Shown: piece after piece, positions 1 to 23,876 of the stretch | How the letters are laid out: each line of letters opens with the position of its first letter | How positions within the stretch are numbered: position 1 is the stretch's first letter | Sequence record: PZ386957.1 | Strand: one strand, 5' to 3' | Length of the DNA stretch: 64,000 nucleotides | From: a phage | Notes under the pieces: model-generated | Databases searched by the model: none | What the model was told of the DNA's origin: nothing | The model's input: the letters and a program-made list of their open reading frames with translations, nothing else | Program-made: the position numbers and the translations under genes

Positions 1-2940
<2,940 letters not shown>

Positions 2941-2974
2941 ATACGATAATGCATAAAAAGATGAGGAAATTCTA

Positions 2975-4972
2975 ATGACTCTATTATCACCGGGTTTCGA
3001 AACGAAAGAAACTACTCTCTCCACTACCATTGTGCAATCTGCGACTGGTCGCGCGGCACTGGTAGGTAAATTTCAATGGGGTCCAGCTTTCCAGATTGTT
3101 CAAATTACTAATGAAGTGGAATTAGTAGATAAATTTGGTCAGCCGGATAATAACACCGCAGACTATTTCATGAGCGGGGCTAACTTCCTCCAGTATGGTA
3201 ATGATCTGCGCGTTGTTCGTGTACTGAATAAAGAAAAAGCAAAAAATGCTACTGCCCTCGCGGGTAACGTTGCGTTCGAAATTAGCAACGAAGGTTCTAA
3301 CTATAAAGTTGGCGATACAATCAAGGTAAAATATAAAAACTCCGAAATTGAAACTGGCGGTAAAGTTACTAAAGTAAGCTCAGAAGGTAAGATTAAAGGT
3401 ATCTTTATCCCAACCGGAAAACTGATCGCACACGCTAAAGCCGTAGGCACTTATCCAGAAGTGAACGGTTATACCGTTGAAGTTACTTCCGGTACTGGTA
3501 ACTCCGGTGCATCTGTTACTATCTCCAGCATTGTGACTGATTCCGGTTTGCTGCTTACGGATCTGGAAACTTCCCGTGACAATATCACTAATCAGACTTT
3601 CTTGACCAAACTGCAAAAATATGATATGCCAGCTATCAGCGCAATCTATGCAGGTGAGATCGGGAACTCTCTGGAAGTTGAAGTGTTGTCACGTAGCGCG
3701 TTTACTGGTACTGCACCGACTCTGACTATGTATCCTTACGGTGGTGAACGTACCGCTGCACGCAATCTGGTAGCATATGGTCCGCAGAATGATAACCAAT
3801 ACGCTATTATTGTTCGCCGTGATGGTGTCGTGGTAGAATCATTTGTCCTGTCCACCGTAAAAGGTGATAAGGATGTTTACGGCAATTCCATCTATATGGA
3901 TGATTTCTTTGCCCGTGGTGCTAGCCAGTACATCTACGCGACGGCACAAGGTTGGGTAAACGGTTTTAGCGGTATCATTTCGCTGGCGGGTGGTGTATCG
4001 GCTAACGAAGCCTCCACCAACGATCATCAAAATGATCCGTTCATCGGTGCGATGATGCAAGGTTGGGATCTGTTTGCCGAGCGCGAAACTATCCATGTAA
4101 ACCTGCTGATTGCTGGTGCGTGTGCTGGTGAAGCTGATAACTTCTCTACCGTACAGAAACACGCTGTTTCCATCGGTGATGAGCGTCAGGATTGCTTAGT
4201 GCTGGTATCTCCACCGCGTAGCACTGTAGTTAATATTCCGGTGACTACCGCAGTTGATAATCTGATCAAATGGCGTGAAGGTACTGATAGTTACTCTGAA
4301 AATAACATGAATATCAATACTACCTACGCGGTAATTGACGGTAACTACAAATACCAATATGACAAATATAACGATGTAAACCGTTGGATTCCGCTGGCTG
4401 CTGATATCGCTGGTCTGTGTGCACGCACTGATACCGTAGCTCAACCGTGGATGAGTCCGGCTGGCTATAACCGTGGTCAGATCATGAACGTCGTTAAACT
4501 GGCAATCGAGCCGCGTAAAGCACATCGTGATCGCATGTATCAGTGTGCAATTAACCCGGTAATTGGTGCGGGTGGTGAAGGATTTATCCTGCTGGGCGAT
4601 AAGACCGCTACCAGTGTTCCGAGTCCGTTTGACCGCATTAACGTTCGTCGTTTGTTTAACATGCTGAAAAAGAATATCGGCGATTCCAGCAAATACAAAC
4701 TGTTTGAAAACAACGATAACTTTACTCGTGCGTCTTTCCGTATGGAAGTCTCTCAGTATCTGAACACGATCCGCTCTCTGGGTGGTATCTATGACTTCCG
4801 CGTACAGTGTGACACTACGAATAACACCGCAGATGTGATTGATCGTAATGAGTTTGTCGCTAGCATGTTCATTAAACCTGCTAAATCTATCAACTTCATT
4901 ACTCTATCTTTCACTGCTGTTGCTACTGGTGCTGATTTCGATGAAATCATCGGTCCAGCTAATCAGGCGTAA
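2975..4972 (+). CDS. 18: Tail sheath protein
   Basis: 665 aa; N-terminus MTLLSPG and long collinear similarity to T4 gp18 (FQWGPAFQI, YAIIVRR, TATSVPSPFDRINVRRLFNML); RBS GAGGA upstream. Confidence 0.95.
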   Translation: MTLLSPGFETKETTLSTTIVQSATGRAALVGKFQWGPAFQIVQITNEVELVDKFGQPDNNTADYFMSGANFLQYGNDLRVVRVLNKEKAKNATALAGNVAFEISNEGSNYKVGDTIKVKYKNSEIETGGKVTKVSSEGKIKGIFIPTGKLIAHAKAVGTYPEVNGYTVEVTSGTGNSGASVTISSIVTDSGLLLTDLETSRDNITNQTFLTKLQKYDMPAISAIYAGEIGNSLEVEVLSRSAFTGTAPTLTMYPYGGERTAARNLVAYGPQNDNQYAIIVRRDGVVVESFVLSTVKGDKDVYGNSIYMDDFFARGASQYIYATAQGWVNGFSGIISLAGGVSANEASTNDHQNDPFIGAMMQGWDLFAERETIHVNLLIAGACAGEADNFSTVQKHAVSIGDERQDCLVLVSPPRSTVVNIPVTTAVDNLIKWREGTDSYSENNMNINTTYAVIDGNYKYQYDKYNDVNRWIPLAADIAGLCARTDTVAQPWMSPAGYNRGQIMNVVKLAIEPRKAHRDRMYQCAINPVIGAGGEGFILLGDKTATSVPSPFDRINVRRLFNMLKKNIGDSSKYKLFENNDNFTRASFRMEVSQYLNTIRSLGGIYDFRVQCDTTNNTADVIDRNEFVASMFIKPAKSINFITLSFTAVATGADFDEIIGPANQA

Positions 4973-4999
4973 TATAGCACACCAAAAGAGTTAAATCAA

Positions 5000-5017
5000 G
5001 CGGGGATTACTCCCCGC
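5000..5017 (+). other. Intercistronic hairpin GCGGGGATTACTCCCCGC between genes 18 and 19, no T-tract
   Basis: Perfect 7-bp GC-rich stem with 4-nt loop seen in sequence; lacks a downstream U-run, so more likely RNA processing/stability or attenuation than a full terminator. Confidence 0.4.
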
Positions 5018-9382: not shown

Positions 9383-10969
9383 ATGAAAACTACCAAAGAA
9401 CTGATGGAAAAATGGTCTCCGCTGCTGGAAAACGAAAAACTGCCGGAGATTGCAACCGCATCTAAACAGAAACTGGTTGCTAAAATTCTGGAATCTCAGG
9501 AAGCAGATTTTGCAGTAGATCCGATTTATAAAGATGAGAAAGTAGTAGAAGCGTTTGGTGGCTTTATCGCAGAAGCAGAAGTTGCTGGCGACCACGGTTA
9601 TGACGCACAGAAAATTGCCGCAGGTCAGATGAGCGGTGCTATCACCAACGTAGGTCCGGCTGTAATCGGTATGGTTCGTCGTGCTATTCCTAACCTGATC
9701 GCATTCGACATTTGCGGCGTTCAGCCGATGAGCACTCCGACTAGCCAGATCTTTGCAATCCGTTCCGTATACGGTGCTGATCCTCTGGCACAGAATGCAA
9801 AAGAAGCATTCCATCCGATGTACTCTCCGAATGCGTTCCATAGCTCTCTGGCAGCAAAAGACGCGACCGCTCAGTCTCCGACTGGTACTGCATTCGCACA
9901 ACTGACCATGTCTCAGGCGATTCAGGTTGGCGATATTGTACATCACACCTTCGCGGAAACTGGCATTGCTTATCTGCAAAACGTTTCCAGTCAAGCGGTA
10001 ACTCCGTCTAAACAGGGTCAGGAATCCGAAGATGAAGTTGTAATGAAACTGATCGAAGATGGTAAACTGGCTGAAATCGCTTTCGGTATGGCTACTTCCA
10101 TCGCGGAACTGCAAGAAGGTTTCAACGGTTCTCAGAATAACCCGTGGAATGAAATGTCCATGCGTATTGACAAACAGGTTGTTGAAGCGAAATCTCGCCA
10201 ACTGAAAGCCCGTTACTCTATCGAAGTTGCTCAGGATCTGCGTGCTATCCACGGTATGGATGCTGATGCCGAACTGAATGCTATTCTGGCTAATGAAGTT
10301 CTGCTTGAAATCAACCGTGAAATCGTTGACGTAATCAACTTTACCGCTCAGGTTGGTAAGACTGGTATGACTCAGACCGTTGGTTCTAAAGCTGGTGTAT
10401 TCGACCTGCAAGATCCGATCGATACTCGCGGTGCTCGTTGGGCTGGTGAATCCTTCAAATCTCTGATCTACCAGATCGACAAAGAAGCTGCTGAAATCGC
10501 TCGTCAGACTGGTCGCGGTGCTGGTAACTTCATTATCGCTTCCCGTAACGTTGTAAACATTCTGGCTTCTGCTGATCAGGGTATTAGCGTTGCTATGCAG
10601 GGTGCTGCTCGTGGTCTGAATACCGACACCACCAAAGCTGTTTTCGCTGGTGTTCTGGCTGGTAAGTATAAAGTATTCATCGACCAGTATGCTCGTCAGG
10701 ACTACTTCACCGTAGGCTACAAAGGCGACAACGAAATGGATGCTGGTATCTACTATGCGCCGTATGTTGCTCTGACTCCGCTGCGTGCAACTGATCCTCA
10801 GTCCTTCCATCCGGTTCTGGGCTTCAAAACTCGCTATGGCATCGGTATTAACCCGTTTGCAGACAGCAAGTCTCAGTCTCCGAGTGCTCGCATTACTTCC
10901 GGTATGTTGAGCAAAGACAGCGTAGGTAAAAACGCTTACTTCCGCCGTGTATGGGTTAAAGGCTGCTAA
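9383..10969 (+). CDS. 23: Major capsid protein
   Basis: 528 aa; extensive identity with T4 gp23 (GPAVxGMVRRAIPNLIAFDICGVQPM, ATSIAELQEGFNGS, GRGxGNFIIASRNVVN, YFTVGYKGxNEMDAGIYYAPYVALTPLR). Confidence 0.97.
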   Translation: MKTTKELMEKWSPLLENEKLPEIATASKQKLVAKILESQEADFAVDPIYKDEKVVEAFGGFIAEAEVAGDHGYDAQKIAAGQMSGAITNVGPAVIGMVRRAIPNLIAFDICGVQPMSTPTSQIFAIRSVYGADPLAQNAKEAFHPMYSPNAFHSSLAAKDATAQSPTGTAFAQLTMSQAIQVGDIVHHTFAETGIAYLQNVSSQAVTPSKQGQESEDEVVMKLIEDGKLAEIAFGMATSIAELQEGFNGSQNNPWNEMSMRIDKQVVEAKSRQLKARYSIEVAQDLRAIHGMDADAELNAILANEVLLEINREIVDVINFTAQVGKTGMTQTVGSKAGVFDLQDPIDTRGARWAGESFKSLIYQIDKEAAEIARQTGRGAGNFIIASRNVVNILASADQGISVAMQGAARGLNTDTTKAVFAGVLAGKYKVFIDQYARQDYFTVGYKGDNEMDAGIYYAPYVALTPLRATDPQSFHPVLGFKTRYGIGINPFADSKSQSPSARITSGMLSKDSVGKNAYFRRVWVKGC

Positions 10970-11148: not shown

Positions 11149-11457
11149 ATGCACACACTTATAAAGACCAAAACTCCCGCCACGTCTGCACCAGTAAGCT
11201 GTATTCATAGTACGCATATGACTGTACAAATGACGGTAGAAGGTGTAAGGCAAGGGCAAAAAGTCATTGCAGAGGCTGTTTTAGAAGGTTCTCTGGATGG
11301 CAAAGGTTGGTTCACTATCTCAGAGTTGAAAGCAGATGGTAATGAATATGCAACTGACGGTGGAGCGTTTGAAACATTATGGTCATTTATTAGGGCGAAA
11401 GTAAAATCAATTTCTATTGATTCTACTGTCACAGTGTATCTTGCGAAACGGGGGTAA
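11149..11457 (+). CDS. Hypothetical protein (102 aa), first gene of the late insert module between 23 and 24
   Basis: ORF with GGGGAG RBS; no family recognised. Confidence 0.6.
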   Translation: MHTLIKTKTPATSAPVSCIHSTHMTVQMTVEGVRQGQKVIAEAVLEGSLDGKGWFTISELKADGNEYATDGGAFETLWSFIRAKVKSISIDSTVTVYLAKRG

Positions 11458-11460
11458 TAC

Positions 11461-13176
11461 ATGAAGCTGAATCCAGATGCAGTAATTAACGCTGGTTCCG
11501 TTGGTGGTGGCGGTTCCGGTGGTGGTATTCAGGTCGGTACTAATGTACCGTGTGGTATTCAGAATAATCACCGTTTCGAAAACGAGCAGGAACGAGACGC
11601 GTATTTTGCAACTAAATTCCCGGAACTGGAACGACTGAAAACAATTATTGTTTGCGGCGGTAAACTCCAGCTTTGGACTGGTGCAACTGCGCAATCACCT
11701 TATGATAATTCTAAATGGGTCGATATGACCTGGGTGATTCAGGGTGAACAAGGTACGGCAGGTGAAAAGGGTGATGCCGGAAGAGGCATTGCCAGAATTG
11801 AAGCACAAATCTCGCCGGATGATGCAAACTGGACACTTGAAATCACGTACTCTGATCAGACACAAGAAAGTCTCGTTTTCCCCGTACCGGATGTGTTGGC
11901 GAACGTAGCACAGCGTTTAACGGCGTTGGAAGTTCGATGGACGACTACCGGAAACCCTATTAACAATCTAGACGCAACATTACAACAAGGCCGTTACCCC
12001 GTAGATGTTACTACCTACGGTAAACCGCAAATGATGGCAAATAAGGGGTCTGTAGATGTATATGTCGTGGATAGTAGCGTTATTCAGGTTGTCCATTCTA
12101 TTGATGGTGGTGTGTACTCTCGCACGCGACACAATGGTAGTTGGACAGAGTGGGTATCTAAGGGATCTGGTGGTGGTTCCGGTGGTGGCTTAAATGGTGA
12201 TCAAGAAGCATTGCTCGCCAGCTTAGGTACACGTTTACCGGAAATTTCGCCAAATACCCGCGATCTAAACGCACTTCAACATCAAGGCCGTTTTTGCTAC
12301 GATGAACAATCCGCTAACCGTCCAAATGGTGTCATCACTCATGGGTCAGTAGATGTTCATGCTTGCAAAGACCATGTATTGCAAATCGCTACCAGTATTG
12401 AAGGGGTAATGTATCACAGGGCTTTAGACAAAGCAAATGGTACATGGAGTCAATGGACACAGATTAGTGATGCTACGGGAGGTGCTACCATCTATGCATT
12501 CCCTCGCGCGGCTAGTGTCTTTACGACTTCTCAGAGTCTGTTAGATGCAGCTAATCCCGGTGCTGGATTCTTTTATATTCCGTGGAAATATGTAATCCAT
12601 GATAACTATGGATGTACACCGCAGATTAAAGAGCCAAACAGACAAGCTGATGCTGATCACTGGTGGATTGCCCCGAAATCCGGTAGTTATGATATGGAAT
12701 TGATGCTTGATGTAAGTTTCATCAAGACACAAGCAACGATTCCGGTAATGCTGGTTGTTACTGCATGGCATCGTGACTCACAGGGTCATGAACACATGGC
12801 AGCACGTTACAATATGCCGTTAGATGTTACACAGAAAAACCAGAAAACGAAATCCGCTAAACTCCGACTTAATCAAATCTTGCACGGTGATATGGTCCGT
12901 TGGCAGGTTGAATTTACTGGAGGTAACTGGTCGCAGGATGACAACCCAGATGTTTCCTTTGTTCCTTTCCGAACAATGCTGATGGTCGATGAGGCAGAAT
13001 ACGACACAGCAAAACGGATCGGGCTATTGGCTTATAACACATGGGCTAATTTCCATGCTAAACCCGGTTTAGCTGCAACCGTAATTGAAGATCAGGGTAA
13101 AGCCCGTCTGAATGCGGTTAAATGGAATGTTGCAATTGATAGTATCGAGGCAACTGTACAACCAGGCCAGCCATAA
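11461..13176 (+). CDS. Fibrous protein with Gly-rich linkers, short collagen-like G-X-Y stretch and two knob-like repeats
   Basis: 571 aa; GGGGSGGG and GSGGGSGGG linkers; GEQGTAGEKGDAG; two ~70-aa repeats (LQQGRYPVD...GSVDVYVV...YSRTRHNGSWTEW and LQHQGRFCYD...GSVDVHAC...YHRALDKANGTWSQW) resembling tail-fibre knob domains. Confidence 0.8.
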   Translation: MKLNPDAVINAGSVGGGGSGGGIQVGTNVPCGIQNNHRFENEQERDAYFATKFPELERLKTIIVCGGKLQLWTGATAQSPYDNSKWVDMTWVIQGEQGTAGEKGDAGRGIARIEAQISPDDANWTLEITYSDQTQESLVFPVPDVLANVAQRLTALEVRWTTTGNPINNLDATLQQGRYPVDVTTYGKPQMMANKGSVDVYVVDSSVIQVVHSIDGGVYSRTRHNGSWTEWVSKGSGGGSGGGLNGDQEALLASLGTRLPEISPNTRDLNALQHQGRFCYDEQSANRPNGVITHGSVDVHACKDHVLQIATSIEGVMYHRALDKANGTWSQWTQISDATGGATIYAFPRAASVFTTSQSLLDAANPGAGFFYIPWKYVIHDNYGCTPQIKEPNRQADADHWWIAPKSGSYDMELMLDVSFIKTQATIPVMLVVTAWHRDSQGHEHMAARYNMPLDVTQKNQKTKSAKLRLNQILHGDMVRWQVEFTGGNWSQDDNPDVSFVPFRTMLMVDEAEYDTAKRIGLLAYNTWANFHAKPGLAATVIEDQGKARLNAVKWNVAIDSIEATVQPGQP

Positions 13177-13187
13177 GGGGGCGTTTA

Positions 13188-14114
13188 ATGGTTAGTGTAG
13201 AATCGAAAATCCGGCAATTACAAAACGGATTTGTTCAAGGCGAAATTACCCAGTTTACTGGTAATGAATCGAATGCTTTGATGGAAAGTGATGTTGAACG
13301 AATTTCTAATTCAATCAACACGGAACTAATCGATCCGGTTATTGATTTTGTTATTGCGTGCGATGACGTAATTTCAGAATCAGCGACGGAAGCACTTAAA
13401 GCGGCGGAAGCCGCTAAAAATCTTGCTGATGTAGCAGATGCCACGGCAGGGCAGTCTATGAGTAAAGCGACAGACGCGCTAGCTAAAGCAAATCATGCTG
13501 ATTCAGAAGCAACAAGGGCGCATGATCGATTAGATAAACTCAATATTCCACAAATCCCAAACTTAGACGGTCATACGTGGAATTGGCTACCGCGTTCATT
13601 TGACAGCGTATCAATTAAATTGGGTAACGGTGTTACATTAGCAGATGCGCAGCAAAAACCGCGTATTATATGGACACCAATTAGACAAAACTTTGAAACA
13701 GGTCGATATTATCTCGAAGGTAGATTTGAAGCCCGTTTTAAAGTCATGCTGATGGATTGGATTCAAACTCCCGGTTCGGGTGGTCATATTTTCTATTTGG
13801 GAGGTACTCAAAGTCTCGCATCATTTAACGGTAGGATTTATCCTCAAAACTTGTCAAATGATGTTATGAAACCTATGAGTATTCAGGTTAACGCATATTC
13901 CGCTAAAGATACCCAAATGATTTTCGGTGCTAGCGCCGATGCATCACTTTCTAATTCTCAGGAAGTGAAATTGGCTATTTTGGCAGATATTGGTTCAGAT
14001 AGATTCGACCGTTATGGCGATCCAGTTTATGTTGATTTGGTTATGACGTTCCAGCGTGACAGTGAAGGTAACTTTGGTTTTGGTAATAATTTATTCCCAT
14101 CTATTTCACCTTAA
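13188..14114 (+). CDS. Fibre-like protein, paralog A (shared N-terminal module with 14166-15521)
   Basis: 308 aa; N-terminal segment ISNSINTELIDPVIDFVIACDDVISE matches ISQTINDALIDPVVNFIAECDAVIVE in the next gene; Ala-rich helical region then distinct C-terminal domain. Confidence 0.75.
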   Translation: MVSVESKIRQLQNGFVQGEITQFTGNESNALMESDVERISNSINTELIDPVIDFVIACDDVISESATEALKAAEAAKNLADVADATAGQSMSKATDALAKANHADSEATRAHDRLDKLNIPQIPNLDGHTWNWLPRSFDSVSIKLGNGVTLADAQQKPRIIWTPIRQNFETGRYYLEGRFEARFKVMLMDWIQTPGSGGHIFYLGGTQSLASFNGRIYPQNLSNDVMKPMSIQVNAYSAKDTQMIFGASADASLSNSQEVKLAILADIGSDRFDRYGDPVYVDLVMTFQRDSEGNFGFGNNLFPSISP

Positions 14115-14124
14115 TTGTCAATTT

Positions 14125-14143
14125 TCGGGGCGCTATGCCCCGA
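14125..14143 (+). other. Hairpin TCGGGGCGCTATGCCCCGA between the two fibre paralogs
   Basis: 7-bp GC stem seen in sequence, no T-tract; lies between the stop at 14114 and the RBS of the gene starting at 14166. Confidence 0.4.
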
Positions 14144-14165
14144 TCTAATTACTGGAGAATGCTTT

Positions 14166-15521
14166 ATGCTAAGAAACCGTTTAAAAGCTGTACCGTCTTT
14201 TACTCCTGGCGAAATGGGTAACATCACCACACAAGATGAGCATTGCTTGATGGAACATGATATTCCTATCATTTCACAGACTATTAACGATGCTCTAATT
14301 GATCCGGTTGTTAATTTTATTGCGGAATGTGATGCCGTAATTGTTGAAGGTATGGGAACTATTGCCGATACCGTCGATATTATCGATAAAAAAGCCGATA
14401 ATGCAATTTCAATGGCACACTATGCTGATACTCGATCCGGTGAGGCTATGACTAAGGCAACCGAGGCCAAAACAATAGCAGACGAGAGCAAAGCAGAAAA
14501 TACCGCTTTAAAAGCCCGTATCGACACCATAGAGCCAGAAATCGGTGTAATTAATGGTAACGTAGCAGAAGCACAGAAAAACGCGTCAGACGCGCTCTCA
14601 AGCGTTTCTACGCTAAATCAGAAAGTAGACGAAGTAAAAACCGTCGCTGATAATGCAACCGTGGAGATCACTGGTATTAAACCACAAGTACAAAGTCTGG
14701 AATCCGTTGTATCAGATGCCTATAGTGGGATTGCTGTATTAAGCAAAGATGTAGAGAAATTAAAAACTGATGTACAGAGCGCAGATACAAAGGCCGCAAG
14801 CGCAGGAACTAAAGCAGGTGAGGTAGAGACACAACTCAATGCATTATCACCGCGCGTGGATACCGTAGAAAGCGATTTGGCACAAATGCAAACCACGGTC
14901 AACGGCATCAACGACAAAGTAAATGATACTACGGTTAAAGCAGATAATGCGGTAAGCAAAGCGACTGCGGCAGAGCAAAAAGTAGACTCGCTGGAGCCAA
15001 ATGTTCAAACCGCTACGCAGAATGCTGAAACAGCTTTGACAACGGCACAAGCGGCAAGTGGTGAAGCAGCAACCGCAAAAGCTAAAGCAGAAGATGCGGT
15101 CACTGAATCAGGTGAGGCTAAGTTATTGGCAGAAGAAGCCAACAATAAAGCAACCACAGCAGAATCTAATATCAATACTCTTACTAGTCGCGTTTCTACT
15201 CTGGAAACCGATAAAGTTAAGATCCAGCGTTTTACATTTATGGAAGACCGTCGAATCGGTGGCGGTGGTACAACTTTCCGACGTATTAACGTACCTGGCG
15301 TTAAAGTTGGTGATACAGCCACGTTACAAATGTATGAAGATTTTCAACACAAAAGCCTATTAATTTTGCAAGCTCATGTGATTGATGCTGATACTATCGT
15401 AACATCTGTATATAATTTGTCAACTTCCCCGATGAACATCGGCAAGAAAATGCTAGTTACTATAATTAGCTCAAATGATGTAATTACGCAGGATGTAGAG
15501 GCGGTTGTATCGTCCAACTAA
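14166..15521 (+). CDS. Fibre-like coiled-coil protein, paralog B
   Basis: 452 aa from ATG at 14166 (GGAG 8 nt upstream); track start at 14115 overlaps the hairpin. Long Ala/Thr/Lys/Glu-rich heptad-like region, small beta-rich C-terminal domain. Confidence 0.75.
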   Translation: MLRNRLKAVPSFTPGEMGNITTQDEHCLMEHDIPIISQTINDALIDPVVNFIAECDAVIVEGMGTIADTVDIIDKKADNAISMAHYADTRSGEAMTKATEAKTIADESKAENTALKARIDTIEPEIGVINGNVAEAQKNASDALSSVSTLNQKVDEVKTVADNATVEITGIKPQVQSLESVVSDAYSGIAVLSKDVEKLKTDVQSADTKAASAGTKAGEVETQLNALSPRVDTVESDLAQMQTTVNGINDKVNDTTVKADNAVSKATAAEQKVDSLEPNVQTATQNAETALTTAQAASGEAATAKAKAEDAVTESGEAKLLAEEANNKATTAESNINTLTSRVSTLETDKVKIQRFTFMEDRRIGGGGTTFRRINVPGVKVGDTATLQMYEDFQHKSLLILQAHVIDADTIVTSVYNLSTSPMNIGKKMLVTIISSNDVITQDVEAVVSSN

Positions 15522-17617: not shown

Positions 17618-18001
17618 AATATTTCCTCCATAGAAAGCAATATCATACTACAAGTTAATAACAAATACAAGTATCCGCGTAGCGGAAGCGAGCACAGCGA
17701 GCAATAAAACACTTCCAGTAATTGATTAATAAATGTTCGAAACAAATTTTTATTATTCTATAAGATAAGTCTTCGTTTTGATCATAATTTAATCATACTA
17801 ACAAAACTGATCATCAAAGATATCGCTTCGCGAACTCCTTCGGAGTATAACATTTATGTTACAATATGTGGTGTTTAATTATTAACCAAAGATACAATTT
17901 CTATATCTATAAGATACTTCTTCGTTTTGATTATATTTTAGTCAAACTGTATTATTTGTGTACTAATGTAAACTTAAAGTGTGTAAAAATAGATACAAAA
18001 A

Positions 18002-18021
18002 AGCCGCCCAGAAGGACGGCT
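18002..18021 (-). terminator. Rho-independent terminator for the 19118 early operon
   Basis: On minus strand AGCCGTCC-TTCT-GGGCGGCT followed by TTTTTT. Confidence 0.65.
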
Positions 18022-18029
18022 AAAGTTAA

Positions 18030-19145: not shown

Positions 19146-19160
19146 GCATAAAAACAAAAA

Positions 19161-19180
19161 AGCCACCCTCTCGGATGGCT
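19161..19180 (-). terminator. Terminator after hoc-like gene 1
   Basis: Hairpin AGCCATCC..GGTGGCT followed by TTTTTTGTTTTT on minus strand. Confidence 0.6.
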
Positions 19181-19191
19181 TAAGATAAAAA

Positions 19192-20424
19192 TCACGCAGG
19201 AGGCGCTTCACGGATGCGTAGCACCCGCTCTAAGATCTCGCGATCAAGTTTGTGGAACTCTTTGGAATTGTACATGAAACCGTTTCGTGATTCCATGCAA
19301 ATGCAGTCGCTATATTTTTCTTCTGCCGCTGCAATCGTCTCCAGATCACGCGCGTATCGGCTTGTTTCATAAACATGACGTTCGCGCCATTCTAAACCAG
19401 CTTCATTGAATTTAACAATCTCATCGAATACCCACCAGCCTATATAAATGAAGGATGTTTTACGCCACGGGATCGGGTGAACATATCGCCACATTTTGTG
19501 TAGGGAATCAACAATGGTCATTGTGCATTTTCGGCTTTCCTGATAGGAAAGTTCTACTGTCGCACTACCAATAGTCTGGTAAAGTTTAGCGATACACCAG
19601 AAAGACGCATGATCATCATGTGTTGCTCGTTCTTTAAACAGATGACCATCTGGCATAATGGCAAACCCTTCTAATACCTCACCTACTTCTGTTCCAAGTA
19701 AAGTCGGTTTAGCTTGTCCTTCGCGTTGCAGATACCAATTATATTTGATTGTTAGTGCTGGCATACCGCTAGAATCGCCTACAACGTCCTCTGACACGCT
19801 AAACGGCAATAGAATCTCCTTACCTACAGCTACGATTTTTGACGCTGGTACATCGCTTTCTGTGCGCAATGATGCAAGCATTACTTTAACCGATGAACTA
19901 TCAGCCGATGCCTCATTTTCGCCCCATACTTTAACAGTATACACACCATTATCAGAATTGCTAAAATCCTGAATTGTTAAATTCTCTTGTATTCCTAAAT
20001 CTTCTCCACCTTTACTCCATTCATAATGGATCACGTATGAATCGGAAGGAGCTTTACCGCCTGAATATGAAACCTTAGTATGCAATACTACGTCAGTGTG
20101 AGTAGGAACATAGAAATGTGATGGTTCGGTGATCGTCACAACTAATGCTGTTTCGTCCATGCGAAGTGCATCGCTGGTTACTTCTTCGCCTGAATCGGTA
20201 TCACGCACCGTAATTTTATATGCACCTGCATTTGCGGCAGTGGCATTAGCAATGCTTAAAGTTGCTGTATCCCCTTCATGTGGTTTATTATCTTTTGTCC
20301 ATGTATAAGTCAGATTGCTGGGTAATGGATCGCCTCCAACCGCTTCAACCGTCGCAGTTAGTGTAAATGCATCACCAGGAAGAAAACATGCTTTATCTGA
20401 CTTGAGTTTAACAGTAAATGCCAT
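19192..20424 (-). CDS. hoc: Hoc-like outer capsid protein, short paralog (Ig-like domains + Hoc capsid-binding C-terminus)
   Basis: 410 aa; Ig-like repeats; C-terminal RYVHPIPWRKTSFIYIGWWVFDEI...ESRNG matches the T4 Hoc C-terminal domain (YVHPLP...GWWVMDEI...ESRNGY). Confidence 0.85.
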   Translation of the reverse strand: MAFTVKLKSDKACFLPGDAFTLTATVEAVGGDPLPSNLTYTWTKDNKPHEGDTATLSIANATAANAGAYKITVRDTDSGEEVTSDALRMDETALVVTITEPSHFYVPTHTDVVLHTKVSYSGGKAPSDSYVIHYEWSKGGEDLGIQENLTIQDFSNSDNGVYTVKVWGENEASADSSSVKVMLASLRTESDVPASKIVAVGKEILLPFSVSEDVVGDSSGMPALTIKYNWYLQREGQAKPTLLGTEVGEVLEGFAIMPDGHLFKERATHDDHASFWCIAKLYQTIGSATVELSYQESRKCTMTIVDSLHKMWRYVHPIPWRKTSFIYIGWWVFDEIVKFNEAGLEWRERHVYETSRYARDLETIAAAEEKYSDCICMESRNGFMYNSKEFHKLDREILERVLRIREAPPA

Positions 20425-20445
20425 ATAGCCACTCCATAGAGAAAA

Positions 20446-20463
20446 GTCGCCCCGAAGGGCGAC
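20446..20463 (-). terminator. Hairpin terminator between the two hoc paralogs
   Basis: GTCGCCC-CGAA-GGGCGAC followed on minus strand by TTTTCTC. Confidence 0.55.
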
Positions 20464-20469
20464 TATTAA

Positions 20470-23013
20470 TTAAAATAGTTGAGTACCATCAACCAGATAA
20501 CCGTTTCGGGATTCAAGAACATGCGTATTGCTATAATGATGCAGCGATGCCGCAATAGTCTCGACCTCGTCCGGGTAACGGGTATGTGTAAAGTCCTCTA
20601 ACCAGTTAAGACCTTCGCGGTTACAACGATCAATCTCATCCATTACCCAATACCCTTGATACTGGAAGGATGTACGTCGCCATGGGATCGGGTGTACATA
20701 TCGCTTAAGCTGTGCGGTAGTGAATACCACACGGATTTTTTCAGTATGAGCAACATGACCCGCGTCATCGGTGATCTCTGCGTAGTAAGTCGCCTGGTCT
20801 TTATCCTTGCTGATTTGATCTTTCGGGATGGTATAAGTTTTGTCATTCGCGCCCTGAATAACGCTATCTTTACCGCCCTGTACTTTATGCCACTTCCAGC
20901 TAACTACCTTATTCGGCGTGATATGTTCCGCGTCAGCCTTTAACACAATATCCTGATCCTGACCTTCTTTAGCCACCACATCCACTGGATGTTGAAGGAT
21001 ATTAATGTTAGTATGTGGATTCAGCACAATAACAGCCGGATTAGTTTCTAGAGTACGCTCTGCGGCAGTAACTACAGCCGTGTAAGTCCCCGCATCGGAT
21101 GGTTTAGCGTGATCAATTATCAGCACCTCATCATTAGCGCCCGGAATAATCTGACCATCTTTTTTCCACTGATACGATGGTTTAATGCCGATAGTGTTCG
21201 TCGCTTGCGCATGTAGCATAATCCGCTGGTTGTAGTTGACATTATTACTTTGCGGGTGAATCGTAATTTGTGTATCATTAGGAACTACAGTCGGATCATC
21301 GGTGATCAGTACGCGCACGGCATCGGACATTTTAGATACACGATGATCGCCAAAGCCAGCCGATACACGGCAAGTATAAACGCCAGTTGATGACAATTGC
21401 GCGTGATCTTCACCATATACATTTCGTTGTTCAATTCCGGTTGGGAATAAATCCTCACCATCTTTAAACCAACGGTAACGAACTGGCAAAGCATCATTCG
21501 ACGTTGCTGTAATGCTTAACGCCCACTGTCCACCGGAACGAATGCTAACCGCTTTTGGTTGTACCGTGATGTTTAGCGTAGATTTAGAATCATCTACGGT
21601 AACTTGAACAGGATTAGATTCTTTAGTGATTCGGTGGTTCTGAATACCCATAGAAACTACGCACTTATACTGTCCTTCGTCGGCTTTTGTGATCGCGGAG
21701 AAATGTAGCGCATTAGACGTTTTACCCGGCAACAATTCATTATCTTTATACCACTGATAAACAAGTTTATAATGCTCGTAGTCAGTGGTCGCCTGACAAA
21801 TCAATGATTGAGCGGAACTAACACGAACATTAGTTAACTGCTGCGGTTGCTGTGTGATTCGAATTTCAGGCGCAGCACCGACCAGCAAACTTGCTTCTTC
21901 TGTGTCTACTGTTATATTATCACCGTAGGTCAATTTGGCTTTATATTTCGCCTGATTATATTCCTGAGTAGCCGGAATAATATGCAACTCGTTATTAACC
22001 GCACCAACAATCGGTTTAAATTCAGGATCGCCGTTTTTCTGGACATACCATTGAATTTTTACCGGAGAATAGTTGGTTGCATATTCAACGCGGAATAAGC
22101 CAAGAGCACCAGCGCCCACATTAAGTGTCTGTGGTTGCTGAATAATACGGAAGAAAGCATGATCACTGATGATCACATTACAATCTTTCGAATATACGGT
22201 AGTCTCTGCTTGTCGAACTTCCATTCGCCAGATTCCCGCGTCTGCTTTAGTAACATGGGTAATAATCAGCGATTGACCGTTTTGATCCGGTACAATCTTG
22301 CCGTTATGAATCCACACATACTCAATCGGGCGAGTAGTATCATCTGACACCACATGAGCGACTAACTCCAGTCGACCATCTTCTGGAATAGTTACAGACG
22401 ACTCGTATTGTTCAGTAATATGAACTTTCGGTGCATCGGTGTTTTGTTCCACGACTACCGGTTCGATCCAATAGTGAGAACGTGCATCATCCTGTACAAA
22501 TACTTTACAAGTGTAGTTACCAAAATCCTCATAACCTACACGATCAACGTGTACGGAAATGTTATTACGAATCTTACTCGGATCTAGTAATACATGGTTT
22601 TTATACCAGATATAAGCCGCATTATGATTATCTTCGATAAACGGGGTAGCGAAAATATCCAGTGATTCACCTAAACGCTTGTAAATGTACGTCGGAGATT
22701 GGTCTTGTGGAGCAATAAAGATTCGACGTTCAACAAGGATTGGTTTAATATCCACATATTCCTGCGGATTTTCTTTGAGTTTTACACGCGCGGTGTAAGT
22801 ACCGAACTGCTGATCTGTCATTTCTGCAATATACAGAGATTGATCTGGTTCGGTAACTTGTTCCGCTGGTACACTCTGCCCGTTTAGCTTCCATTCTACA
22901 ATATAGTCTTTAAAATCTGCGACACTAACAACCAGTCGCAAAACCAATTCATGACCTACTGATGCATAAACCGGACCTACTGTTTGATGTAAGATATTGA
23001 TTTTATCAGACAT
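20470..23013 (-). CDS. hoc: Hoc-like outer capsid protein, long paralog (~8 Ig-like domains)
   Basis: 847 aa from ATG at 23013 (AGAGGA RBS); repeated ~90-aa Ig-like units; C-terminus KRYVHPIPWRRTSFQYQGYWVMDEI...ESRNGYLV as in Hoc. Confidence 0.85.
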   Translation of the reverse strand: MSDKINILHQTVGPVYASVGHELVLRLVVSVADFKDYIVEWKLNGQSVPAEQVTEPDQSLYIAEMTDQQFGTYTARVKLKENPQEYVDIKPILVERRIFIAPQDQSPTYIYKRLGESLDIFATPFIEDNHNAAYIWYKNHVLLDPSKIRNNISVHVDRVGYEDFGNYTCKVFVQDDARSHYWIEPVVVEQNTDAPKVHITEQYESSVTIPEDGRLELVAHVVSDDTTRPIEYVWIHNGKIVPDQNGQSLIITHVTKADAGIWRMEVRQAETTVYSKDCNVIISDHAFFRIIQQPQTLNVGAGALGLFRVEYATNYSPVKIQWYVQKNGDPEFKPIVGAVNNELHIIPATQEYNQAKYKAKLTYGDNITVDTEEASLLVGAAPEIRITQQPQQLTNVRVSSAQSLICQATTDYEHYKLVYQWYKDNELLPGKTSNALHFSAITKADEGQYKCVVSMGIQNHRITKESNPVQVTVDDSKSTLNITVQPKAVSIRSGGQWALSITATSNDALPVRYRWFKDGEDLFPTGIEQRNVYGEDHAQLSSTGVYTCRVSAGFGDHRVSKMSDAVRVLITDDPTVVPNDTQITIHPQSNNVNYNQRIMLHAQATNTIGIKPSYQWKKDGQIIPGANDEVLIIDHAKPSDAGTYTAVVTAAERTLETNPAVIVLNPHTNINILQHPVDVVAKEGQDQDIVLKADAEHITPNKVVSWKWHKVQGGKDSVIQGANDKTYTIPKDQISKDKDQATYYAEITDDAGHVAHTEKIRVVFTTAQLKRYVHPIPWRRTSFQYQGYWVMDEIDRCNREGLNWLEDFTHTRYPDEVETIAASLHHYSNTHVLESRNGYLVDGTQLF

Positions 23014-23090: not shown

Positions 23091-23804
23091 TTACTTGAGT
23101 GTGTGGAATTGGCTATGTTTAGTCTCGCGTACCTTGACAGATCCATCACGCTTGATATAATAGATCAGTGATTTAAGGGTATCATGGACATACACATGCG
23201 GGAAACGTTCTGGGTGTTTCTTCCAGTCTGGGGTATTCTGAATCCAGTCGAAGATCCACCATGGGCAAGTGTAATAGCCACGACCGCCACCAATCAAGCT
23301 AATGGTAGGACGAAATCCAGTGAGATCGCAGAGTGTTTCGGAATCAGGAATACCACGATGTTCTGCCTCATCTGAGAAGATGTTAGCGACCGGAGATTCT
23401 TTAACTTCCGGCAATTCTACATTGATTTCGACGTGTTCCGGTTCCGGCTTGACTTCTTCTACGATTTCAATTACAGTAGGCTGTTCTTCCGGTTCTTTCA
23501 TTGCTTCAACCAATGCCGGACGTGCTTCGTCAAATACAACTTTATCTTCTGCGGTATCAGCCGCAATAATCAGATCGGTAATACTGGTTCCTTCTGCTGG
23601 AGTTTCATTATTCATTTCAGATGCCATATTATTGAGTTCTGATTCTACGTTGGTGATCATGGTTTCCAGCGACCAAGTTTTTTTCACCTTAATGTCAAAT
23701 TGTTTTGCGTAATCTGCTAATTCTGCTTTAGCTGTCTTCTGGGCTTCCTTATCGTCAGAAGCCGCGATCAAGCGGAGTTCTTCAAAGTATTCTTTATCAA
23801 ACAT
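23091..23804 (-). CDS. inh: Putative Inh-like head protein (assigned by synteny only)
   Basis: 237 aa from ATG at 23804 (AGGAG RBS); position between hoc and uvsW as T4 inh; acidic central region. Confidence 0.5.
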   Translation of the reverse strand: MFDKEYFEELRLIAASDDKEAQKTAKAELADYAKQFDIKVKKTWSLETMITNVESELNNMASEMNNETPAEGTSITDLIIAADTAEDKVVFDEARPALVEAMKEPEEQPTVIEIVEEVKPEPEHVEINVELPEVKESPVANIFSDEAEHRGIPDSETLCDLTGFRPTISLIGGGRGYYTCPWWIFDWIQNTPDWKKHPERFPHVYVHDTLKSLIYYIKRDGSVKVRETKHSQFHTLK

Positions 23805-23833: not shown

Positions 23834-23841
23834 TATAAATA
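23834..23841 (+). promoter_or_regulatory. T4-type late promoter TATAAATA upstream of uvsW
   Basis: Exact TATAAATA 36 nt upstream of the uvsW ATG. Confidence 0.65.
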
Positions 23842-23876
23842 TTGTATATTGTATTTATTGAGTGAGGCTGTTCGCT

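Follow-up and report, generated by a model that had tools for sequence, protein, structure and literature searches.

The 64,000-nucleotide (nt) stretch of phage DNA analysed here (record PZ386957.1, hereafter the window) comes from a T4-family phage of the RB49/Krischvirus type, and carries between positions 19192 and 23013 two adjacent minus-strand genes that encode Hoc head decoration proteins of very different length. The first gene of the pair, hocL (20470-23013, with its stop codon at 20470-20472), encodes a Hoc paralogue of 847 amino acids (aa), in which eight immunoglobulin (Ig)-like domains precede a C-terminal capsid-binding domain (CBD). The second, hocS (19192-20424, stop codon at 19192-19194), encodes a 410-aa orthologue of RB49 Hoc, with three Ig-like domains, a CBD and a C-terminal tail of 28 aa. 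Hoc is a non-essential, acidic fibre, with an isoelectric point (pI) of about 4-5. Both proteins of the window are acidic (pI 5.1 for hocS and 5.6 for hocL), and hocL is naturally deleted in phages that are viable.

The original prediction, made from the letters of the window, described two minus-strand genes of 410 and 847 aa that both end in the Hoc CBD, the longer one with about eight Ig-like repeats, and this description held throughout. Both open reading frames (ORFs) lie where it had placed them, and the motifs that it quoted (YVHPIPW..., W/YWVxDEI and ESRNG) are present in both proteins. Both belong to the PHROGs family "Hoc-like head decoration" (E values of 8.8e-63 and 1.8e-45), and the Ig-like domains match Pfam Ig_3, Ig_2 and I-set with E values down to 3.6e-40. 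The two C-termini also align to the CBD of T4 Hoc (5VF3_Z): residues 313-386 of hocS pair with T4 residues 292-363 (E 3.8e-10 for this stretch, 6.9e-15 for the whole protein), and residues 751-845 of hocL pair with T4 residues 274-366 (whole-protein E 1.6e-17). In T4, the key CBD residues are Y293, H295, R300, W309, W310 and D313, together with the E355-SRNG359 loop at the centre of the capsomer (Fokine et al. 2023, PMC10385173). All of these contact residues are kept in hocS, and hocL keeps all but the equivalent of W309, which is a Tyr. The ORFs, motifs, CBD alignments and Ig domains of the two genes are far beyond chance, and on sequence grounds hocS and hocL are confirmed as genuine, intact Hoc paralogues with Hoc-type CBDs.

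The S-type CBD and its tail (aa 307-410) are encoded at 19195-19506 on the minus strand, and run from YVHPIPWRKTSFIYIGWWVFDEIVKFNEAG to ESRNGF, followed by the S-specific tail that ends in HKLDREILERVLRIREAPPA. The hocS protein shares 69% aa identity with RB49 Hoc, and matches the crystal structure of the three RB49 Ig domains (PDB 3SHS; Fokine et al. 2011, as cited in PMC10385173) with an E value of 8e-127. Its AlphaFold2 (AF2) model has a predicted local distance difference test score (pLDDT) of 91.3, and superposes on 3SHS in Foldseek with a template modelling (TM) score of 0.95 and a root mean square deviation of 1.6 Å. The model shows three Ig domains and a CBD with the small alpha/beta fold expected of Hoc, made of four strands (316-318, 323-328, 375-378 and 384-386) and two helices (330-341 and 358-371) at pLDDT 84-92, and short C-terminal helices follow at residues 387-401.

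The hocL reading frame is open from 23037, which would give a protein of 855 aa; the true start codon, with an AAGAGGA Shine-Dalgarno sequence ahead of it, is the ATG at 23013, which gives 847 aa. The N-terminus at this start is MSDKIN, conserved among the orthologues as MS(D/N)KIN, and the upstream ATG is not conserved, being ATA in phage G2248. Modelled by AF2 with an alignment of 15 orthologues, the protein (mean pLDDT 82.9) folds into eight beta-sandwich domains, at approximately residues 1-96, 97-191, 192-284, 285-379, 380-475, 476-571, 572-665 and 666-764, followed by the CBD at 765-847. This L-type CBD is encoded at 20473-20721 on the minus strand, and runs from YVHPIPWRRTSFQYQGYWVMDEIDRCNREGLNW to ESRNGYLVDGTQLF, with a tail of only 9 aa after SRNG. 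A Foldseek search with the hocL model retrieved multi-Ig arrays, such as an eight-Ig fragment of DSCAM, and the best sequence match in the PDB to domains Ig5-7 is to the Ig repeats of Hex-Dec, from phage Bas63. Conservation within hocL is highest in the CBD (mean pairwise identity 88%) and lower in the Ig domains (56-69%), of which Ig3 and Ig4 are the most variable.

The same tandem, with the same flanks and with orthologous genes of 846-847 and 408-410 aa, is found in the Krischvirus isolates JK32, SSG23, SFHK24, Brandy, UPWr_E1 and G2248, and in JK32 the two genes are already annotated as "head outer capsid protein". The arrangement inh, hocL, hairpin, hocS is shared by 12 of 12 genomes or contigs that carry hocL, and in every hocL-bearing contig that we opened, also where the relative is only 59% or 42% identical, the genes run inh, hocL, hocS, 24.3. 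Orthologues of hocL in a large protein database fall into 14 clusters, at 98% to 42% identity and all with lengths of 841-853 aa, and those of hocS fall into 54 clusters. In all seven genomes compared both genes are intact and of constant length. The pairwise ratio of nonsynonymous to synonymous substitution rates (dN/dS), for pairs with unsaturated dS, is about 0.06-0.19 for both genes and similar to that of inh, with values of 0.09-0.14 for hocS and 0.06-0.15 for hocL; both hoc genes are under purifying selection.

The two anchors differ from each other far more than they vary among phages. Over the 70 columns of the CBD core, sequences of the S type share an identity of 0.83 and those of the L type one of 0.89, and S and L compared with each other reach 0.53 (maximum 0.57), the pair of the window being 54% identical. 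Seven core columns are fixed differently between the two types: the L-type-specific columns are fixed in 8 of the 8 hocL sequences compared, and the S-type signatures are kept in all orthologues. The tail after SRNG is also distinct, with 28 aa in the S type (...HKLDRExLERVLRIRExPPA) and 9 aa in the L type. As each CBD type forms a conserved clade of its own, the duplication is ancient; the S and L anchors split before the known members of the lineage diversified, and each has remained constant since. Over their whole length, hocS and hocL are only 60-71% identical among JK32, UPWr_E1 and G2248 (loci L001, L004 and L005), the figure for the adjacent inh being 92-99%. By these comparisons, the genus Krischvirus is unusually diverse at the hoc cassette, which forms a hot spot of variation.

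Upstream of hocL lies inh (23091-23804, minus strand), which encodes a prohead protease inhibitor of 237 aa (phrog_1051, E 3e-73) with a conserved MFDKEYFEEL start, and whose orthologues in JK32, RB49 and other phages share this start. A putative late promoter, AATAAATA, lies at 23852-23859 on the minus strand, about 50 nt upstream of inh, and departs from the T4 late consensus TATAAATA at one position. Of the 11 sequences compared from the window and its relatives, 10 have a motif of the form (A/T)ATAAATA at a distance of about 50-57 nt upstream of inh (none matched in locus L008), and this motif reads TATAAATA in L007, the most distant two-Hoc relative, and in L017; T4 itself has AATAAATA 35 nt upstream of its own inh. 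The 70-nt region between inh and uvsW carries back-to-back late-promoter-like motifs, TATAAATA at 23834-23841 on the plus strand facing uvsW and AATAAATA at 23852-23859 on the minus strand facing inh, and this arrangement is conserved in relatives. A scan for sigma-70 promoters gave no excess of sites over shuffled sequence and was not used. No promoter specific to hocS was found.

Between the hocL stop codon and the hocS Shine-Dalgarno sequence is a GC-rich hairpin (20438-20464, minus strand), AGUCGCCC-UUCG-GGGCGACU, which is followed by a U tract and resembles a terminator or attenuator. The hairpin is present in all 12 of the hocL-carrying loci with stems of differing sequence, and compensatory double changes are seen in 5 of the 7 predicted pairs; in G2248 and in Serratia phage Muldoon a terminator is annotated at the same intergenic position. 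A second terminator-like hairpin, with a T tract, lies downstream of hocS (19160-19181, minus strand), where it is likely to end the transcription unit, and its equivalent is again annotated in G2248 and Muldoon. From this layout we infer that inh, hocL and hocS form one late transcription unit.

The longer gene is absent from many relatives. An intact hocL is kept in only 6 of about 60 Krischvirus records, about 53 having no intact copy, and since it is missing from most records hocL is dispensable. A rough sum of the member sequences in a metagenome-rich protein database gives about 143 for hocL versus about 334 for hocS, a count in which short contigs bias against the longer gene. In RB49, Phi1, Sf20 and Makalu hocL has been deleted, and a trace of it is left between hoc and inh. 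RB49 has one hoc gene and an annotated 65-aa ORF, RB49p168.2 (YPDEIDTISASLHHYSNTHVLESRNGYLVD...), which corresponds to the C-terminus of hocL. In a DNA alignment, RB49 keeps the region upstream of hocL, the Shine-Dalgarno sequence, the ATG and 11 codons, after which comes a junction, with the last ~37 codons following out of frame; the stop codon of the relic is mutated from TAA to CAA, and the intergenic hairpin has a 13-nt deletion. The relics of Phi1 and Makalu_002 retain 35 N-terminal codons, and agree with RB49 in the 3' junction, the mutated stop codon and the deletion in the hairpin. The form seen in RB49 and Sf20 derives from that of Phi1 and Makalu_002 by a further deletion of 75 nt between CAGAA repeats. 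Recurrent deletion is therefore rejected for the four relics examined, as they share the 3' junction, the stop-codon mutation and the hairpin deletion, and these features indicate one ancestral internal deletion of about 2.4 kb in hocL, followed by erosion.

The relic ORFs lie at 4386-4583 in L003 (RB49), 1808-1972 in L009 (Phi1), 1703-1894 in L010 (Sf20) and 1795-1959 in L011 (Makalu_002). Judging by these alignments, the small ORFs that one-Hoc Krischvirus have between hoc and inh, annotated as "hypothetical protein" (among them RB49p168.2 and phi1p168.1; PHROGs 32100 and 19377), are what is left of hocL rather than independent genes, and RB49, the phage that serves as a structural model for Hoc, is a derived one-Hoc form. 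The N-terminal relic of RB49 (MSNKINVLHQTE) matches the hocL allele of UPWr_E1, and the hocS of RB49 is of the JK32 type, a mismatch that suggests recombination within the hoc cassette. The disruption of one gene in related isolates, which the original prediction took as a sign against its reading, is thus partly observed, in that hocL is deleted in four relatives; but every hocL that is present is intact and constant in length, and evolves under purifying selection.

Phages with two Hoc proteins have been noted before. Serratia phage Muldoon encodes a 1174-aa Hoc with 10 Ig domains and a 314-aa Hoc with 2 Ig domains, and Enterobacter phage PG7 has two Hoc-like proteins (Fokine et al. 2023, PMC10385173). 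The Muldoon locus resembles that of the window, since it has the order inh, long hoc, terminator, short hoc, terminator, beside uvsW, and its long and short fibres share a CBD type. It differs in the domain counts (10 and 2, against 8 and 3) and in its CBDs, which are 75% identical to each other, so that the pair of the window (54%) is much the more diverged. The CBD of the long Muldoon Hoc is 74% identical to that of T4 and 35-37% identical to the S and L types of the window; these identities led us to reject an orthology of the two pairs, long with long and short with short. By the same sequence comparison, the long-then-short tandem with a terminator-like hairpin arose independently at least twice.

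Other phages with additional CBD-bearing ORFs at the hoc locus are PG7 (PMC10385173), Escherichia phage EcS1, which has tandem genes of 445 and 165 aa, and Slopekvirus Rpl1. The second protein of PG7 and of EcS1 has an N-terminal CBD or other cargo (a lipase domain in PG7), unlike the pair of the window, in which both proteins have N-terminal Ig domains and a C-terminal CBD. A tblastn search with the CBD matched 1590 sites spread over 1341 phage records. Extra ORFs with a CBD are thus common in this family, and part of the surplus, as in RB49-type Krischvirus, consists of relics. T4 Hoc (376 aa; CBD in 5VF3 and 8T1X; PMC10385173) belongs to the same family, is likewise encoded between inh and 24.3, has several Ig domains in a row before a C-terminal CBD, and is acidic. 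T4 differs from the window in having one hoc gene, whose product has three Ig domains and a CBD core that is 40% identical to either paralogue, whereas hocL has eight Ig domains and a Tyr at the W309 position. RB49 Hoc is like hocS in being its orthologue, with three Ig domains and a CBD at the same locus, and RB49 is unlike the window in having a frameshifted hocL relic instead of a second Hoc.

The presumed docking partner of both Hocs is the major capsid protein gp23 (9383-10969, plus strand; phrog_138, E 2.5e-167), the only hexamer-forming protein in the window, which encodes one gp23 and one gp24. The Hoc-docking loop of gp23 (T4 residues 326-344) differs from T4 at two positions, and is identical in the window, in JK32, which has two Hocs, and in RB49, which has one. 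As the loop is unchanged by the presence of hocL, we rejected co-variation of gp23 with hocL. In T4, one Hoc touches all six subunits of the hexamer via its central ESRNG loop (PMC10385173), and two Hocs therefore could not share a hexamer if this binding mode holds. With one gp23 and one invariant docking loop, the virions most probably bear short and long fibres in a fixed mixture.

The explanation that we favour, with a probability of about 0.65, is that hocS and hocL are a functional Hoc pair, expressed as a late inh-hocL-hocS unit, which docks on a shared gp23 site to give a mixed, two-tier coat, and which arose by an ancient duplication followed by loss of hocL in part of the lineage. 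The three genes would be transcribed late, from the (A/T)ATAAATA promoter upstream of inh, and the hairpin and U tract between hocL and hocS would probably attenuate read-through or stabilise the upstream message, and so help to set the ratio of long to short fibres. By analogy with T4, each Hoc would be anchored through its C-terminal CBD at the centre of a gp23 hexamer, with one Hoc per hexamer. The surface of the virion would then present a fixed mix of short acidic 3-Ig and long acidic 8-Ig fibres, as a two-tier adhesive and dispersive coat without a switch. T4 Hoc is 180 Å long with four domains (PMC10385173), and in proportion to it we infer lengths of about 18 nm for the short and about 40 nm for the long fibre. 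The pair stems from an ancient duplication in the lineage, and the dispensable long copy was lost by internal deletion in RB49 and most isolated Krischvirus.

Several observations weigh against this explanation. The L-type CBD differs from both the S type and T4 at fixed positions, including the Tyr at the W309 equivalent, and is without the S-type tail, so that equal use of one site by the two proteins is not guaranteed. Its strands are modelled at low AF2 confidence (pLDDT below 50 at residues 774-787 and 832-847), although its two helices are predicted. On the gene strand, no exact TATAAATA is found near either hoc gene, and the only one-mismatch variant is that upstream of inh. The intergenic hairpin, if it were an efficient terminator, would also force hocS to need its own promoter, and none was found.

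The divergence of the anchors could also mean that the two CBDs have subfunctionalised, so that each Hoc occupies different quasi-equivalent classes of gp23 hexamers (for example vertex-proximal or facet-edge against mid-facet or cylinder) and the coat is patterned rather than random, a proposal that we hold to be rather unlikely. It would account for the approximately 53% identity between S and L CBDs against 83-89% within each type, the seven columns fixed differently and the tails of 28 versus 9 aa; and as the independently duplicated CBDs of Muldoon are still 75% identical, the stronger divergence in Krischvirus looks like specialisation. There are precedents in T4 Hoc, which favours certain orientations on vertex-proximal hexamers (PMC10385173), and in the Hoc-like Hex-Dec of Bas63, which binds facet-edge hexamers only (PMC12609058). 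However, the two types agree in the central ESRNG loop and in most of the contact residues, the docking loop of gp23 is identical with or without hocL, and RB49 Hoc on its own binds T4 capsids (PMC10385173). The fuller version, in which the diverged CBDs send the 3-Ig and 8-Ig fibres to different hexamer classes and the hairpin fixes their ratio, would make a programmed, spatially patterned two-tier coat, and is put forward as a speculative possibility to which we give about the same, low weight.

That hocL is instead a dispensable passenger, unassembled on virions or on its way to being lost, with hocS alone decorating the head, seems improbable to us. Its deletion in RB49, Phi1, Sf20 and Makalu, its intact presence in only 6 of about 60 Krischvirus records, and the fact that phages without it are viable and widespread all fit such a role. 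Against this, hocL is always intact where it is present, keeping 841-853 aa over 14 clusters down to 42% identity, has a dN/dS of about 0.1 with the CBD as its most conserved domain (88%), retains its Shine-Dalgarno sequence and comes first in the pair; and the four relics with one 3' junction point to a single ancestral loss and not to recurrent decay. Least probable of all, and in our estimate very nearly negligible, is a switch, by which alternative or phase-variable expression would yield a short-fibre or a long-fibre capsid according to conditions. The conserved intergenic hairpin, which could in principle modulate read-through, is its sole support. There are no inverted repeats flanking a promoter, the only long repeat being a 74-nt, 78%-identical stretch that codes for the CBD, no recombinase or reverse-transcriptase-like genes are present among the ORFs of the locus and its neighbours, and both genes are co-oriented behind one promoter-like motif. 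A phase-variable locus was accordingly rejected, with no invertible segment, recombinase, diversity-generating retroelement or slippery repeat to support it. The original prediction had the two proteins compete for the same capsid site, which could give a heterogeneous or switchable surface: heterogeneity at a shared site remains the most economical reading, given the single gp23 and the identical docking loop, but the switchable part is not supported, as no invertible repeats, repeat-based switch or separate promoter were found.

The gene order of the window is gp20-21-22-23 ... gp24, a DprA-like gene, 24.3 (DUF2774), hocS, hocL and inh, then uvsW on the opposite strand, and the order around the hoc locus (gp24 ... 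24.3 - hoc - inh - uvsW) is the same in T4 and RB49. When compared with about 60 Krischvirus records, the whole window has a best nucleotide identity of approximately 76-84%, by which the phage is a divergent Krischvirus-like relative. Its hocL and hocS alleles are 79% and 74% identical in aa to those of the nearest isolate, and on this basis appear to be new; the nearest hocL in the large protein database, at 98% identity, comes from a 3.4-kb contig. A scan of the whole 64-kb window gave no tRNA genes, in agreement with the reported absence of tRNA genes from Krischvirus (PMC11162368), and an Rfam scan of the window gave no RNA genes.

Three further features were observed outside the hoc genes. 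Positions 17618-18029, flanked by the DprA-like gene and the next minus-strand ORF, form an AT-rich region of about 410 nt (GC 0.31) with no convincing ORF, the sole ORF of at least 60 aa being one of 61 aa on the plus strand, and with no Rfam matches; in SSG23 a small ORF is annotated at the equivalent position. The interval between gp23 and gp24 (11149-15521, plus strand) has four ORFs, of 102, 571, 308 and 468 aa. The 571-aa ORF has Gly-rich linkers and a short collagen-like stretch, GEQGTAGEKGDAGRG, with no family matches, and the 468-aa ORF has a long coiled coil of the alanine-zipper/tropomyosin-like kind. Comparable genes are found in JK32 and in contigs L007 and L008, and RB49 has only a 50-aa ORF in this interval; these ORFs look like extra fibre proteins, missing from RB49 just as hocL is. 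In L007 (ENA contig k141_207255), uvsW (2469-5003) encodes 844 aa versus the usual ~500, with LAGLIDADG/Hom_end matches that suggest an insertion of an intein or a homing endonuclease.

With Muldoon and PG7, two-Hoc phages were already known, and what is new here is the pair of alleles in a divergent Krischvirus-like phage. To this the sequence comparisons add that the pair is ancient with specialised anchors, that RB49 is a deletion derivative, and that the tandem layout is independent in this lineage and in Muldoon. In our literature search, no paper found described the two Krischvirus genes, what remains of hocL in RB49 or the stoichiometry of a two-Hoc capsid, and we found no study of how a capsid with one site per hexamer hosts two Hocs, the sole mention being a short passage in PMC10385173.

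Hoc fibres mediate adherence to mucus, to bacterial surfaces and to each other, and Hoc is the main display scaffold in T4 nanotechnology. The practical gain from the present findings is modest, as the definition of Hoc is unchanged, but the question of stoichiometry and placement becomes directly testable. Krischvirus offers a natural system for the two-Hoc question, with E. coli phages that are close relatives and carry both genes (JK32, SSG23, UPWr_E1, G2248, Brandy and the phage of the window), relatives from which hocL has been deleted (RB49 and Phi1), and a crystal structure of the short paralogue. Two anchors that pattern the capsid would, if true, raise the interest of the pair, since a patterned coat would be a layer of capsid surface organisation undescribed for T4-like phages, and one that RB49 has lost.

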